Source of the DNA: Vicinamibacteria bacterium
Lineage (GTDB): Bacteria; Acidobacteriota; Vicinamibacteria; Marinacidobacterales; Marinacidobacteraceae
Direction: 5' to 3'
Assembly: GCA_963422395.1 (NCBI GenBank)
Contig: OY729431.1
Location: 1,440,001 to 1,504,000 of the forward strand
DNA length: 64,000 bases
Part shown: positions 21,317 to 37,259 of the stretch, in pieces
Layout: each line of letters begins with the position of its first letter
Numbering within the stretch: position 1 is the first letter of the stretch
Notes under the pieces: generated by a model
The model's input: only the letters and a program-made list of their open reading frames with translations
Told to the model about the DNA's origin: nothing
Databases searched by the model: none
Program-made: the position numbers and the translations under genes

Positions 21317-21776
21317 CTACTCCTTTTCCTCACACTGAAATCTGAGACCTTTCAGATTGATGGTGGTGGAGACTGAAAGCCTGAGACTTCCGTCGGCACC
21401 CCTGAGTTCAACGCTACCTTCGTTGCAACTCGCGGTGGAAAGCCCTGAAAGACCGTGGGTGTCCAATTGGCTCTGAGTGATCCGGCAAGACTGGCCTTCG
21501 GAGAGGGTTATCACGCCATTCTGAGCCACACAGTCCGGTAAGCCCGGTACCGATGAGACCTGCGCTTGGGCCCGGTTCGGCGACATCATGGCATGCACGG
21601 CCACCGGCGTCACCATGGCGAGCGGGCCGTAACGCCCGATGAAATCACGCCGCCCAGCCCCCGGAGGCTCAACGGCAGCATCACGGGGGGCTTTTCCGGA
21701 GGGGCCATCCGGAACGGCTACATCACAATTTTTTCGGGGGGGGGGGGGGGGGGGGGGGGGGGGGGGGGGGGGGCAC
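21317..21776 (-). CDS. Small secreted precursor-like protein, copy A (out of frame at a C38 tract in this sequence)
   Basis: AAGGAGG, then GTG at 21776, then C38. Leader RRDFIGRYGPLAMVTPVAVHAMMSPNRAQAQ and a four-Cys core; as given, the GTG frame stops shortly after the tract (CCG AAA AAA TTG TGA). Confidence 0.72.
21736..21773. repeat. G38 homopolymer (poly-C on the coding strand)
   Basis: Directly visible; exact length may be unreliable. Confidence 0.85.
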
Positions 21777-21869
21777 GCGAGTCCTCCTTCTAGGAAAGCT
21801 CCACATTGTAACTTTCAGCATTCGGCCTTTTCCAGCAGCGCCTCGTCCCGAGTCGGAAGCGGTGGTGCG

Positions 21870-22092
21870 TCAGCCCCCGATACAGTAGAGCGCTTCGGCG
21901 GTGCGGAGGAAGATCTGCCCGTCGGACATCGCCATCGAGCTGAGCGTGTAGGCGCCCATGTCGTTCGTGGCCAGGATCTCGAACCCGTCCGCAACCTCGA
22001 CCACGGACGCCAGCCCGTCCTCGTTGATCACATAGAGACGGCCTTCGGCGAGGACGGGCGAGGCGCTGTAGGTCCCCGGCGGCAGGCGTTCC
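21870..22092 (-). pseudogene. Duplicated 3' fragment of the beta-propeller gene 22732..24123
   Basis: Encodes the same terminal [12 protein letters not shown]...LYCIGG but lacks the rest of the gene. Confidence 0.88.
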
Positions 22093-22154
22093 TGATCGGC
22101 CCGGTCATCGGCCAGCTGGGAGTTCCCCCGCTCGCAGTCCACTTCTTCATCTCC

Positions 22155-34427: not shown

Positions 34428-35713
34428 GGAGGCTTCTCCCGCGTATTGTGCATCTCTCCGGCGGCTTCCGAGGTGCGTTTCAGGAACCTTGTGCCGCCGA
34501 TCTCGCCCCCGTCTTCGAAGTCGCCGATCAGTCGGGGGTGGTGCTGCAACGCCTTCGCCTCCGCCCGCCTGCGGGCCTCGGAGAGTTTCGAGCGCGGGTG
34601 GATCAACTGGCGAACCCGCCGCCGGATCCGATGAGCGAGCAGTTTCGAACGCTCTCCGAAGGACAAGCCCGCCCCATCCGGCACGGCAAAGGTATTCGCG
34701 AGCCCGGCACGCCAGAACCTGCCGTTGGCGTGTTCCCGCAGAGTTTCGCGGGGAGTGTCCAGCCGGGCGATGGATTCCGCCAGCCATCGCGAAGTCGCTG
34801 CGCCAGGGATGTGGGTGGTGGCTGGGGCGTCCGGCCAGAACCAGATCAGCAGCTGCCGCGCCGCTGCCAGCTCCTCGGGGTGGCGGGTGAAGGCACGCTC
34901 GATCACCGACCAGTCGACTCGCCCTCCGGCAGCCGTGACTAGCAGGTAGATGTGATAGCTGTAGCGCAGATCGAGCGACCGATCGCGGTAATGGTGATGG
35001 TCGAGCAGGTCGTGGGCGATGGCCTGCGCGACTTTTCCCGACGAGGTCAGCTGCCAGGCGCGCAGCGGCGGGTCGAATTCCGGCGCGGCGACGGGTTCGC
35101 GCGCATCCGCAGCCAGCATCCGCAGCGGATCGCCGCCGTTCAGCAAGCGTCGGTGCAACTCGACGGTCACCCCGCCCGGTCCCACGAGAGCCGGAGCGTG
35201 CTTCTCCTCGCGTGCTTCCGGCCACGGGGAGAGATCCCCGGGTTCGATCTCCTGATAGCCGCGCTCGCGGAGTGCCCGCCAAGCAGAGCCTACTGTCTCG
35301 GGCGGAAGCAGCACATCCAGGTCCATCATGAAGCGCCGGCCGCGCAGATCGGCCGGCTCGCTCCATAGTTCTGCCGAGCCCTTGAACAGCAGCGGCTCGA
35401 TGCTGCGCTCGTTCAAGAACGCGACCAGGCGCATCAACTCATCTTCGAGCGCAGCATGACGCCGCTCGCTCCCTTCGATGAGCCAGCGGCAGTAGCCGCC
35501 GAGAGAATCGTCGCTGTCGGCGATGCGCAGCGGATGCCGCACCACTGCGTGGGCGAGCGCCGGCCCTAGCCAGAAGCGGTTGGCCAGCTCGAAGAGATCC
35601 GGCCAGTCCACCTGGGCCGCCGGCGGGAATTCGTCCCAGCGAGTCGGGTGCTCCAGAGTTGCGAGGGCGCGGCACAGATTCCGGATGAGAGCCTCTGTTC
35701 CCGATTCCTGCAT
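34424..35713 (-). CDS. Nucleotidyltransferase family protein (NTP_transf_5-like)
   Basis: LFKG...R.MMDLDVLL and VELHRR motifs. Confidence 0.85.
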   Translation of the reverse strand: MQESGTEALIRNLCRALATLEHPTRWDEFPPAAQVDWPDLFELANRFWLGPALAHAVVRHPLRIADSDDSLGGYCRWLIEGSERRHAALEDELMRLVAFLNERSIEPLLFKGSAELWSEPADLRGRRFMMDLDVLLPPETVGSAWRALRERGYQEIEPGDLSPWPEAREEKHAPALVGPGGVTVELHRRLLNGGDPLRMLAADAREPVAAPEFDPPLRAWQLTSSGKVAQAIAHDLLDHHHYRDRSLDLRYSYHIYLLVTAAGGRVDWSVIERAFTRHPEELAAARQLLIWFWPDAPATTHIPGAATSRWLAESIARLDTPRETLREHANGRFWRAGLANTFAVPDGAGLSFGERSKLLAHRIRRRVRQLIHPRSKLSEARRRAEAKALQHHPRLIGDFEDGGEIGGTRFLKRTSEAAGEMHNTREKPP

Positions 35714-37048
35714 CAGCCGTACCAGGCCACCGCCTGTTCCTCCATCCAGCGGACGACGCGATCGCAGGCGCCGTATCGAACCTCGAAGGCCGGCAGCGCC
35801 GCGAGGTGATCGACGAAGGCGATGGCCTCTTCGGCGTGTCCGATCCGCCGCTGGCGATAGCCGTTGCGGGTCATTGCGAGCACCGCTTCAGGCAGCGAGA
35901 GCGGCCGGACGGCCAGCTCCTCTCCCGGTACGAATCGAGGCGCGACCAGCACTGTGGGAATCGGGGGCTCCTCGGCGGGTGGTCCCTGGGCAGGGTCTTC
36001 CGTCCGCACCGCCGAAGGGAACTGATGGCGCCCATCTCTCTCTCTCTCTCTCTCTCTCTCTGGCAGAGGGCGGCCAGTAGAGGACGAACCGACGCCCGTC
36101 CGGGCGCTCCAGCACTGGAGGCAGGCCGTCGGGGTCCATGCCAGCGGCCTTCCAGGCGCCCTCCTTGATGGCGAGGGGCACTTCGGTGGGCAGCGGTCGG
36201 AGTTCCTCGTCGAGGACGATGGCATCGTCTGACGAACAGATGCCGCCCCGGTCGGTCAACACTTTCGAAAGGGTCGTCTTGCCGGCGCCGGTCGGAGCGG
36301 GTAGCAGCCACTGCACGCCGCGGAAGCACACAGAAGCGCCGTGACACCAGAATCGATACGGGAGTGCTTCGCAAACCGCCTCGAACGCCGCGGCGACGAC
36401 GGCTCCGGCGAGCTGCCCCAGGTTCGCGCAGGGGACGAGCCGCCCTTCCGGCAGGACGACCTGATAGGCATCGGACCCGAGGGAGTCCACGGCTAGCTCC
36501 ATCACTGGGCCTGGCGGCCTGTCCCCTCCTCGATCACTACGCCGGTGGACGGAGTCCACCGGCCGTCGAGCTGCGATCGCCTGGTCCGCCACTCGCCGCA
36601 GCAGGTGCGCCGCCCGGGCCGCCGCTCGCTCTGGGCCGCGGAAATTCACCCGCACCGCCGCCGGCGGAAACACGAACGACTCTGCGCGTTCCGAGAGCCG
36701 AGGGGTGCGAGGGGGGCGCTCGCGCCGTCTGTCTTGCCCCTCAGAGATCCGCCCCGGCCGGAACGGCAGGTCGGGCAGCGGGAGTGAGGGGTCGGCCAGC
36801 GTCGCCGCGTTGGCACGCGCGATTTCCAGGCTGGTGCCGCCGATGTCCGGCTCCAGTTCGTCGGCCGCCGGTTCCGGCCGTTCGGCTGCGAGTGCCTGCA
36901 AGAAGCGCCAGGAGGTCCAGTCCAGCCACACCAGCGACTGACGCTTGCGGCAGTAGACGAGCGGGCTGGAGACGAGCGGACCGGCCGCCGAACTGCCGAG
37001 TGGCGGCTCTAGAACCTCCCAGGCAACGAGGTGCGGAAGGCCGGACAG
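35713..37048 (-). CDS. RRE/PqqD-like plus HPr-kinase-like P-loop protein, frameshifted at an (AG)13 repeat
   Basis: HGASV, APTGAGKTT and SDD in frame 35888..36931. The C-terminal LVAPRF..G..PLS..EA..RYG lies in frame 35713..36225, whose TGA overlaps the next ATG; start uncertain (CTG 37048 or GTG 36931). Confidence 0.75.
36035..36061. repeat. (TC)13 / (AG)13 dinucleotide microsatellite
   Basis: Directly visible at the frame switch of the kinase gene. Confidence 0.93.
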
Positions 37049-37259
37049 CTCTTTCCTGGCAGCCTGCGCCGCAGGAAAGAGTGAGGTCGAGGTGGGGAGG
37101 ATGGGTGCGTCGGGAGGATGGACGAGGTTCTATCGGGGTTTCGCGGTAACCGCCGCAGGAGAGATGCGCACGTCAGGTCCCCGCGTATTGTCCGCTGGAG
37201 TGATAGCAGTGACTTTGGGCGAAGTGCCGTGTGACTTCATCCATGCATAGAAGGCTGTT

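Follow-up and report, generated by a model that had tools for sequence, protein, structure and literature searches.

The 64,000-nt window analysed here (positions 1,440,001 to 1,504,000 of contig OY729431.1, assembly GCA_963422395.1, from an uncultured Vicinamibacteria bacterium of the Acidobacteriota; genome G000 hereafter) is part of a single 2.9-Mb contig of 68% G+C. At 21317-37129 it contains a 16-kb run in which every gene lies on the minus strand. Read 5' to 3', this run comprises a split kinase gene, a nucleotidyltransferase (NTase) gene of the NTP_transf_5 family, two PQQ_2 propellers, a Peptidase_S9 gene (Pfam match at E 3e-49), an EF-hand propeller, an AAA_15/AAA_21 ATPase, an ankyrin-propeller, a fifth propeller and two small genes, A and B (Table 1). 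All five propellers were assigned to PQQ_2 by Pfam, with an EF-hand on one of them and ankyrin repeats on another. A sequence-only reading had described the run as co-oriented with overlapping stop and start codons and had proposed a phase-variable system related to the RiPPs (peptides that are made on ribosomes and modified after translation) or to protein modification. The orientation and spacing were as described: the kinase stop overlaps the NTase start (TGATG at 35715-35711), and only 7 nt separate propeller 2 from the S9 peptidase and 4 nt the peptidase from propeller 3. The genes were also found as named, except that the OLD-like 'nuclease' was matched by its ATPase part only and that the RiPP recognition element (RRE) of the kinase was recognized by homology only. 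Overall, what that reading had observed was confirmed, and its interpretation was partly supported.

Table 1. Positions of the genes of the proposed cassette, their repeats, the surrounding genes and related proteins of other genomes (window coordinates unless a locus is named)
Feature	Position	Strand	Remarks
Small protein A	22210..22659	-	Likely ATG at 22632-22630 behind AGGAGG; in frame in the assembly
Small protein B	21317..21776	-	GTG start behind AAGGAGG; C38 tract, leader, variant four-Cys domain; out of frame
G17 on plus strand, poly-C after the start codon of small protein A	22611..22627		ON at 14, 17 and 20 C; otherwise OFF
G38 on plus strand, poly-C of small protein B	21736..21773		Longest homopolymer of the genome; ON at 37 and 40 C; OFF at 38
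Kinase 5' part, PqqD(RRE)-HprK-like	36062..37129	-	Stop-to-stop limits; HprK_rel_A E 0.02
(TC)13.5 on plus strand, (GA)n in the kinase frame	36035..36061		Variable kinase linker; shifts the 3' part out of frame
Kinase 3' part, other frame	35713..36039	-	HprK_rel_A E 5e-5; aligns to the C-termini of P0001 and P0002
NTP_transf_5 nucleotidyltransferase	34424..35713	-	Pfam PF14907; ATG overlaps the kinase stop
Duplication unit of ~880 bp, two copies (22972-22151, 22110-21265)	21265..22972	-	Repeat families D1, D4, D7, D8, D11, D13, D14
Native array, outside the cassette	22732..34430	-	Propeller 1, propeller 2, S9 peptidase, EF-hand propeller 3, OLD-type AAA ATPase, ankyrin propeller 4, propeller 5 (Pfam)
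OLD-type AAA ATPase	26442-28235	-	Pfam, PADLOC
140-aa open reading frame between kinase and divergent propeller gene	37260..37682	-	Lineage-specific; contains a 33-nt x2.5 repeat
PqqD-twin-arginine-Cys proteins	L017 696-1214; L019 699-1250; L020 527-1096; L025 1660-2259; L027 1985-2569; L067 1790-2305

The two small proteins are 71% identical and contain four cysteine residues each, and their leaders (RRDFIGRYG...AQAQ) are near-identical, bearing out the conserved twin-arginine leaders and four-Cys parts claimed before. In both genes a Shine-Dalgarno-like sequence and the start codon are followed directly by a poly-C tract. In small protein A the 17 C give five proline codons, after which come a 33-aa twin-arginine leader ending in AQAQ and a four-Cys part of ~70-75 aa. 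The leader of the two proteins, AGRRDFIGRYG(S/P)LAMVTPVAVHAMMSPNRAQAQ, belongs to a family with the consensus ARRxFIExYGxLAxxTPxAxxAxMSPxRAQAQ, in which 21 positions were invariant and the length of 33 aa constant in 10 paralogues of 31-39% overall identity. Most of these paralogues come from a second genome, G055, a metagenome-assembled genome labelled Bryobacterales. Among the G055 leader copies the proportion of synonymous differences (pS 0.16-0.44) was far above that of non-synonymous differences (pN 0.01-0.12), suggesting that the leader peptide is under selection and not merely homogenized by gene conversion. Read from the alignment, the leader consists of RRxFI, a mildly hydrophobic stretch with proline, a basic residue and AQA. 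The order RRxFI, hydrophobic segment, basic residue and AxA is the textbook layout of a signal for twin-arginine translocation (Tat), and the leader reads as a predicted Tat-type signal. The TAT_signal model TIGR01409 reported neither small protein of the window at E <=0.01; TatC is encoded in G000 (E 9e-69).

The part behind the leader matched no family in Pfam, NCBIfam or PADLOC. When small protein A was modelled by AlphaFold2 with a 25-row alignment, residues 55-124 reached a predicted local distance difference test score (pLDDT) of ~93, with the leader below 50. The 'core' is thus a compact folded domain of ~70 aa, not a RiPP-type peptide, and in this respect the earlier idea of a RiPP-like core did not stand. 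The domain also occurs elsewhere, either following an ordinary lipoprotein or Sec signal or forming the end of a large Big_9, LRR or CARDB protein; the relative G014 encodes a four-Cys version as a lipoprotein. A fold search of the model against the PDB gave no match at E <=0.001 among the 49 listed, the best being SH3-like small barrels at a probability <0.1, and a search of the ESM Atlas with the mature domain gave no usable match. Outside the family, matches covering the leader were an ordinary Sec-like signal in G232 and hits at E 3e-4 to 9e-4 in G228, G093 and G297.

We then considered the kinase gene. Neither half has a Pfam match of its own; both match NCBIfam HprK_rel_A colinearly (model positions 99-158 for the 5' part and 203-278 for the 3' part; E values in Table 1), scoring 14.0 and 22.4 bits against the 200-bit equivalog cut-off of TIGR04352, which is thus not reached. 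Two intact relatives were found among 5.8 billion proteins, P0001 (394 aa, 57% identity) and P0002 (417 aa, 54% identity). Both read through the repeat site, which is a variable linker, and the (TC)n repeat is missing from these orthologues and from P0010. A profile hidden Markov model (HMM) search of 1.84 billion representatives with the kinase gave 1508 proteins at E <=1e-3, five of them at <=1e-30, and ten of the matches were scanned for domains. An N-terminal Pfam PqqD domain was above cut-off in four of the ten (P0042, P0078, P0124 and P0057) and slightly below it in P0128, and all five carry an HprK_rel_A-like C-terminus with E down to 1e-33. Distant relatives with Pfam PqqD reach up to 116 bits on TIGR04352, and the orthologue P0002 matches Hpr_kinase_C (E 3e-4). 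Aligned by hhalign, the profile of the orthologues and that of the PqqD-bearing HprK_rel_A-type relatives gave a probability of 99.8 and an E of 7e-30 over 357 columns, the alignment beginning inside the PqqD domain of the relatives. The window kinase itself gave no direct PqqD match in Pfam or NCBIfam; because of this profile-profile homology, its N-terminus as a putative PqqD-like (RRE) domain fused to an HprK-like kinase is supported.

Structural approaches were less informative for the enzymes. An AlphaFold2 model of the kinase (3-row alignment) had a mean pLDDT of 47.9, too poor for a fold search, and a search of solved structures with the kinase profile gave nothing below E 0.16, with Hpr(Ser) kinase at E 0.52; the same kind of search with the NTase gave nothing. 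A complex prediction for the kinase N-terminus (residues 25-130) and the leader (residues 1-54) scored 0.02 against a mark of 0.32, a value that, obtained without controls, speaks neither for nor against binding. The assignment of the NTase is more direct: it matches PF14907 at E 6e-17 (62 bits, cut-off 31), is the sole PF14907 gene of the G000 genome and is 63% identical to the NTase that adjoins the kinase in G055.

Both components have a very restricted distribution. Kinase orthologues (E <1e-30) occur in G000 alone among the 55 genomes of the order, with none in the other 54 and 0/27 in the family, and among the 401 genomes of the class, the best match in the 400 others being at E 1e-11 and covering the P-loop region only. 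A scan of the contigs of a genome collection with the kinase alignment yielded a single orthologue locus, L029 of G055, and one spurious P-loop match; the same scan with P0002 alone yielded nothing. Among G055 and 40 of its relatives the kinase was in G055 alone. Intact leader-family genes were found only in G000 (two) and G055 (eight full and one split), the same two genomes that hold the kinase-NTase orthologues, and a family-profile search of 5.8 billion proteins returned seven matches, all from G000 or G055. The co-occurrence of leader and enzymes that the sequence-only reading had put forward as a check was therefore borne out, the two genomes being the sole holders of kinase-NTase orthologues among those searched. 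No JGI metagenome contig was found with either the leader-family or the kinase alignment.

L029 contains two leader genes (7456-7971 and 8300-8662) at 1.3 kb upstream from its kinase (10002-11186) and NTase; between them and the kinase stands a pair that, read by eye, is a HigB/HigA-like toxin-antitoxin. Nothing else in this neighbourhood is common with G000, and the genes downstream are unrelated. At 9965-10100 of L029 the N-terminal motif PAFPHLVAWE of the G055 kinase does not share the frame of the remaining gene, owing to either a frameshift or a miscalled homopolymer close to the 5' end. A relative of G055, G405, has one leader copy that is decayed, its leader being interrupted by a TAA, and neither the kinase nor a PF14907 match was found in it.

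A similar pattern recurs beside more distant HprK-like kinases. With a fixed twin-arginine filter we obtained nine matches, seven of them convincing, in 24 kinase loci (76.6 kb; these include two from G033, neither matching), against one in 35 control loci (210 kb). G371 has, behind an NTP_transf_5 gene and a TTL-HprK fusion, an open reading frame (ORF) of 65 aa whose ATG overlaps the kinase stop and in which a twin-arginine leader, ERRKFLAGFGKAGMVALPFAAAMLTTRNAVAQ, precedes a tail of 13 aa; adjoining genes encode LicD and an NTP_transf_3-aminotransferase fusion. The wider stretch at this place (L089, G371:C5:145000-161000, positions 1290-11313) encodes a methyltransferase, the NTP_transf_3-aminotransferase fusion, LicD, NTP_transf_5, the TTL (ATP-grasp)-HprK-like fusion, the 65-aa twin-arginine peptide, an alpha/beta hydrolase and a carbamoyltransferase, and is a candidate peptide phospho-decoration pathway, as judged from its gene content. 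Twin-arginine peptides also lie upstream of the kinase-NTase pairs of G170, G090 and G225, and when twelve kinase-NTase loci were widened to ~+/-6 kb, a twin-arginine ORF near the kinase was found in four (these three and G035).

At six loci, proteins of 170-200 aa (stop to stop) adjoining HprK-like kinases combine a PqqD-like domain with a hydrophobic twin-arginine segment, which closes with AxA, and with a tail of 6-10 cysteine residues (Table 1). Five of the six were scanned, and all five gave weak PqqD-family matches, two of them reaching the TIGR01409 TAT_signal cut-off. If their internal segment is a membrane or export signal, RRE and substrate would be one polypeptide. We rejected a shared mature domain for the G371-type and PqqD-fused precursors, as their cores are short or Cys-rich and unrelated. 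Kinase and NTase themselves are often neighbours: at least 13 of 71 kinase places had a PF14907 place within 2.5 kb, among the 150 of 473 PF14907 places listed, a count that leaves out one NTase-adjacent locus of G033. G384 and G245 enter the PF14907 tallies only, and none of our conclusions depends on these three genomes. PF14907 itself is present in 244/401 genomes of the class.

On the strength of the shared patchy distribution, the adjacency in a second genome and the recurring pattern beside related kinases, we regard the two ends of the run, with moderate confidence, as parts of a single cassette for leader-guided protein modification, of the kind that combines an RRE, an HprK-like kinase and an NTP transferase. 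In such a cassette the PqqD-like domain fused to the kinase would bind the 33-aa twin-arginine leader in the cytoplasm, and the kinase would phosphorylate a serine residue, for which the near-invariant serine four residues past AQA is the candidate. The NTP_transf_5 enzyme may extend the phosphate with a sugar or a nucleotide-derived group, and the decorated, folded ~70-aa four-Cys domain would then leave via Tat, with signal peptidase cleaving after AQA. The slippery repeat in each of the three genes could allow slipped-strand mispairing to switch each of them independently. A further-reaching idea, in which doubt still prevails, is that the Tat signal doubles as a RiPP-type leader, the PqqD-kinase holding it while the folded mini-protein is phosphorylated, extended by NTP_transf_5 and exported by Tat. 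This might be a general logic of HPr-rel-A cassettes, common in Acidobacteria and applied to short peptides, Cys-rich tails and whole domains, with the repeats switching both substrates and enzyme.

The alternative that survives best is that two unrelated things share a variable neighbourhood: phase-variable Tat-exported mini-proteins, with a possible surface or adhesion role of the Opa type, and a kinase-NTase pair that has another substrate or is a decaying remnant. We regard this as possible, if on the whole doubtful. Several observations weigh against a single cassette, and some of them also favour this alternative. The mature domain is widespread without the enzymes: 17 other genomes of the class encode it behind ordinary signals and lack this kinase, showing that it can exist on its own. 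In G000 the small genes and the kinase-NTase pair stand on either side of a native array and are separated by 12 kb; the spots flanking this array vary among relatives, so that unrelated insertions accumulate there, and in G055 six of the eight full leader copies are far from the kinase. The exact leader family is limited to two genomes, so that the co-occurrence of 2/2 has a small base, and G000 and G055 may share one transfer event. Eight of the twelve widened kinase-NTase loci were without a twin-arginine ORF under the filters used.

The state of the kinase gene points the same way. It is frameshifted in the assembly, and no ATG, GTG or TTG stands ahead of its conserved N-terminal PHLVAWEV motif: the first such codon is a GTG at 36931, use of which would remove the conserved N-terminus, and the sole in-frame candidate start before the motif is the CTG codon 37048-37046, which AGGA precedes by 5 nt. 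By frame arithmetic +2, -4 or +8 nt would restore the frame; the form 8 nt shorter that is suggested by a contig of another public run (X6, below) would be out of frame too, if its gaps fall in the repeat. Taken together, these points mean that the kinase may be a decaying pseudogene rather than a switch. The archaeal-type signal peptidase (TIGR02228) was not above cut-off in G000, G055 or G371, the weak G000 match (26 bits) lying ~394 kb from the kinase, and no ATP-binding cassette (ABC) exporter was among the Pfam results for 21.3-37.1 kb, where ABC-like matches fell on the OLD-type ATPase only. Finally, the leader is without the [Y/W]xxP motif that is bound by the RREs of lasso peptides and linear polyphosphorylated peptides (LPPs; PMC13381572).

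What speaks against two unrelated neighbours is that the leader family and the kinase-NTase orthologues are confined to the same two genomes among >480 searched, that leader genes adjoin the kinase in G055, that twin-arginine-leader ORFs are enriched beside distant kinases, and that the constraint on the leader is well above the needs of Tat targeting. As for the scattered G055 copies, precursor genes served at a distance by one enzyme set are known for other RiPPs. We favour the leader-guided cassette.

The middle of the run can be separated from this cassette. The S9 peptidase is a family core gene, present in 24/27 relatives at 68-80% identity, and the array order is kept in G014, G018 and G004 and partly in G005, with protein identities of 65-83%. 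In G014 and G018 it reads propeller 1, propeller 2, S9, EF-hand propeller, a variable spot, ankyrin propeller and propeller 5. The flanks are also as in the window, with the TRAP (tripartite ATP-independent periplasmic) permease gene in G014 and G018 and the divergent propeller genes in G014 and G004, one of these also in G018 and G005. The kinase halves, the NTase, the 140-aa ORF and the small genes were all without a match at these four array loci. Since the same-order array occurs in relatives without the cassette genes, it is native and the propellers are bystanders, as the sequence-only reading had allowed. Judged from this gene order, the 16-kb run is a composite, with a native propeller/S9 block in the middle and lineage-specific additions at both ends, and the block is unrelated to the kinase-NTase and small-gene additions. 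That the whole run is instead one system, in which propellers and S9 peptidase process or bind the exported mini-proteins and the OLD-type ATPase takes part, seems very unlikely to us: the genes are co-oriented and tightly spaced, lineage-specific genes stand at both ends of one block of transcription direction, and the S9 peptidase is weakly like the lasso isopeptidase Atxe2 (E 2e-14, 53 bits against a cut-off of 400), but the array order is conserved without the cassette genes, the G055 and G371 cassettes contain neither propellers nor an S9 peptidase, and the OLD-type ATPase is found in one of the four relatives, at a variable spot.

This ATPase matches the PADLOC models NsnB, AriA, Old and GajA; the match is limited to the ATPase part, and no Toprim domain was reported in the Pfam and PADLOC scans. 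Among the four relatives' array loci it is present in G004 only, as a 59%-identical copy at the same place, with other content or nothing there in G014 and G018, and it looks like a defence gene lodged within the propeller array. On the other side of the kinase, the 140-aa ORF matched no family; it has a coiled-coil look and a hydrophobic C-terminus, and its 33-nt repeat (x2.5, 70% matches) lies at 37405-37486.

We next examined the repeats. The only mono- and dinucleotide repeats of the window scoring >=34 are G38, G17 and (TC)13.5, and these three sit in the kinase and the two small genes, so that the earlier claim that the window's only long simple repeats fall in these genes is true for mono- and dinucleotide units; tandem repeats of longer units exist elsewhere. 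One of these is a perfect tandem repeat of the 12-nt unit TTCCCAATCGAC (x4.5) at 776-829 of the window, distant from the cassette. In the 2.9-Mb genome there are seven G/C runs of >=16 (one each at 16, 17, 18 and 19, two at 32 and one at 38) and two dinucleotide repeats of >=13 copies. Shorter G/C runs number six at length 9 and one each at 10 and 11, with none at 12-15, and the dinucleotide repeats of >=6 copies are (GC)6, (TC)13 and (AG)14. Three of the nine long repeats of the genome thus fall within this 16 kb, where ~0.05 would be expected. The others are at 635512-635530, 1015888-1015903, 2451234-2451265, 2579287-2579314, 681483-681514 and 189637-189654 of the genome (loci L001-L004, L006 and L008). 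Here G19 splits an Eco57I/N6_Mtase gene, G16 is near the start of an N6_N4_Mtase gene, C32 splits a DUF4007 gene, (AG)14 splits a second methylase gene of the Eco57I type (Eco57I/MmeI-type), G32 is inside a 672-aa ORF without a family and G18 is in no clear gene. By their annotation, these loci together resemble a phase-variable gene set for restriction-modification or defence.

In the cassette, each repeat is placed so that changes in unit number toggle the reading frame by frame arithmetic, and in the assembly small protein A is ON, with small protein B and the kinase OFF. The position of the poly-C tract is kept in six of the eight G055 copies at 6-12 C, and one copy has 30+9 C (paralogue L036, with C30 + A + C9 at the equivalent of the B tract), which makes the tract a trait of the leader family. 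To compare samples, contigs (not reads) of four public runs, X1, X2, X3 and X6, were aligned to the locus, gaps being given as counts without positions. One X6 contig runs across the TC repeat with 8 gap letters, all other letters agreeing, and in one X1 contig, from a strain that is more distant, the count is 21. As the repeat is the only low-complexity stretch in the span, its length probably differs between samples. No contig of the four runs spanned either poly-G tract, and in X2 and X3, whose flanks are identical, the short-read contigs end at each of the three repeats. Such ends at the poly-G tracts carry no information on tract length; the tract lengths of the assembly are unverified, which also counts against the proposed switching. 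From the frame arithmetic, the between-sample lengths and the conserved tract position in G055, we infer that the genes may undergo the slipped-strand ON/OFF switching that had been proposed. That the repeats are sequencing or assembly artefacts (two-colour poly-G, long-read homopolymer miscalls) without any switching, as the unverified lengths and the X2 and X3 contig ends would allow, is highly improbable, because the genome-wide placement follows the pattern of contingency loci: run lengths are bimodal, with none of 12-15 and then 16-38, tracts stand at gene starts or inside the ORFs of methylase and DUF4007 genes and take up the equivalent position in paralogues of a second genome, the flanks are identical in independent runs, and (TC)n is spanned by contigs of two other studies with differing lengths.

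The small genes are part of a duplication, both copies of which comprise the last 273 nt of the propeller 5 gene (its 3' end), a spacer and a small gene (Table 1). The junction (~22084-22152) is occupied by a filler of 68 nt that is identical to an internal part (20672-20740) of the TRAP permease gene, which is convergent and ~1.4 kb away; this suggests a template-switch type event rather than simple unequal crossing-over. The arrangement is different in the strain of X1, where a contig joins 21349 to 22269. Its contigs join copy B of the small gene to copy A (21349/22269 and 22316/21447, one of the joints having 11 other letters), and in that strain both small genes appear to be recombined or to form one hybrid.

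If the favoured reading is true, it extends the chemistry of RRE, HprK-kinase and NTP-transferase, known from LPP and lasso tailoring, from peptides of Bacillota to exported folded proteins of Acidobacteria, and proteins with twin-arginine leaders would become a testable substrate class for the HPr-rel-A cassettes that are without a substrate. An export signal would then also be the recognition handle of a modifying enzyme, which would explain the use of Tat instead of Sec. On the further-reaching idea above, the result would be a combinatorially variable decorated secretome in an environmental bacterium, beside phase-variable restriction-modification genes. The genome offers a clean set of long-repeat contingency loci (methylases, DUF4007 and the cassette) in an uncultured acidobacterium.

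The closest known systems are the LPPs, a class of RiPPs from Bacillota described in May 2026 (Popov et al., Nat Commun, PMC13381572). LPP clusters comprise an RRE, an HprK kinase, an NTP transferase and a leader peptidase of the signal-peptidase type, with one to three precursors of 35-200 aa that have conserved N-termini and variable C-termini and whose core Ser3 is polyphosphorylated (PMC13381572). The window locus shares the HprK-like kinase and an NTP transferase and has a putative RRE. No lasso cyclase is part of the LPP clusters, and the LPP NTP transferase is given as uncharacterised (PMC13381572). The precursors of the window also fit the LPP style, being two genes of ~140-150 aa with an invariant leader and differing cores. 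Both leaders have a layout suited to a signal-peptidase-type enzyme, which removes that of the LPPs, and both families have a serine near the leader-core junction, the phospho-acceptor S3 in LPP and the near-invariant serine at +4 after AQA in the window family (PMC13381572). Differences are as clear. The RRE is discrete in LPP, and the putative one of the window is fused to the kinase; the LPP leader motif YxxPxVLxHQxIxFETxxS does not occur in the window leader, which is of the twin-arginine type; and a type I signal peptidase like that of archaea (SpI) and an MsbA-like exporter belong to the LPP cluster (PMC13381572), whereas the window cluster is without both. Four LPP features, namely the discrete RRE, SpI, the exporter and the YxxP leader motif, are accordingly lacking, and the window adds a folded four-Cys domain in place of the core, long repeats in enzyme and substrate genes and an acidobacterial host.

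Related chemistry is known from lasso peptides of the paeninodin and pseudomycoidin type, in which a homologue of HPr kinase phosphorylates a serine of the precursor before folding, and the pseudomycoidin nucleotidyltransferase adds one or two hexoses onto the phosphate (PMC8498205). The sequence-only reading had seen no B2 peptidase in the window, and this extends to the genome: PF13471 (Transglut_core3), the lasso B2 peptidase, gave no match at E <=0.01 in G000 or G055. No Asn-synthase-like protein was among the Pfam matches of the window region, in which no search aimed at the lasso macrolactam cyclase was made. The window locus thus differs from lasso tailoring in being without PF13471 and in a substrate that is not a lasso peptide.

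The HPr-rel-A system of NCBIfam (TIGR04352, HprK-related kinase A; TIGR04353, PqqD family peptide chaperone) is a computational definition. It shares with the window a PqqD domain, putative in the window kinase, and an HprK-related kinase, often with an NTP_transf_5 gene adjacent; it differs in having no named substrate and no twin-arginine-leader partners in its model descriptions, and the window kinase is below the TIGR04352 cut-off. For the switching, Neisseria provides the known counterparts, with the opa genes as contingency genes that carry a repeat in the signal-peptide coding region, and with phase-variable pilin-modifying enzymes. The likeness lies in paralogues with a conserved 5' end and variable mature parts, a repeat just after the start and a modifying enzyme with a repeat of its own. 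In contrast, the present host is environmental and uncultured, its homopolymers reach 38 nt, the proteins are unrelated, and the system is known from sequence alone. Our literature search, judged from titles in the latter case, found no publication joining PqqD, twin-arginine leaders, HPr kinase and RiPP, none under the NCBIfam and Pfam names, and none with phase variation by simple sequence repeats in Acidobacteria as its subject. Because the enzyme trio and the precursor style are common to LPP, while four LPP features fail and the HPr-rel-A cut-off is not reached, we file the cassette as LPP-/HPr-rel-A-like but new. As predicted from its genes, it is marked off by a Tat-type leader, a kinase-fused RRE, a folded-domain substrate, the lack of a dedicated peptidase and pump, and long repeats.

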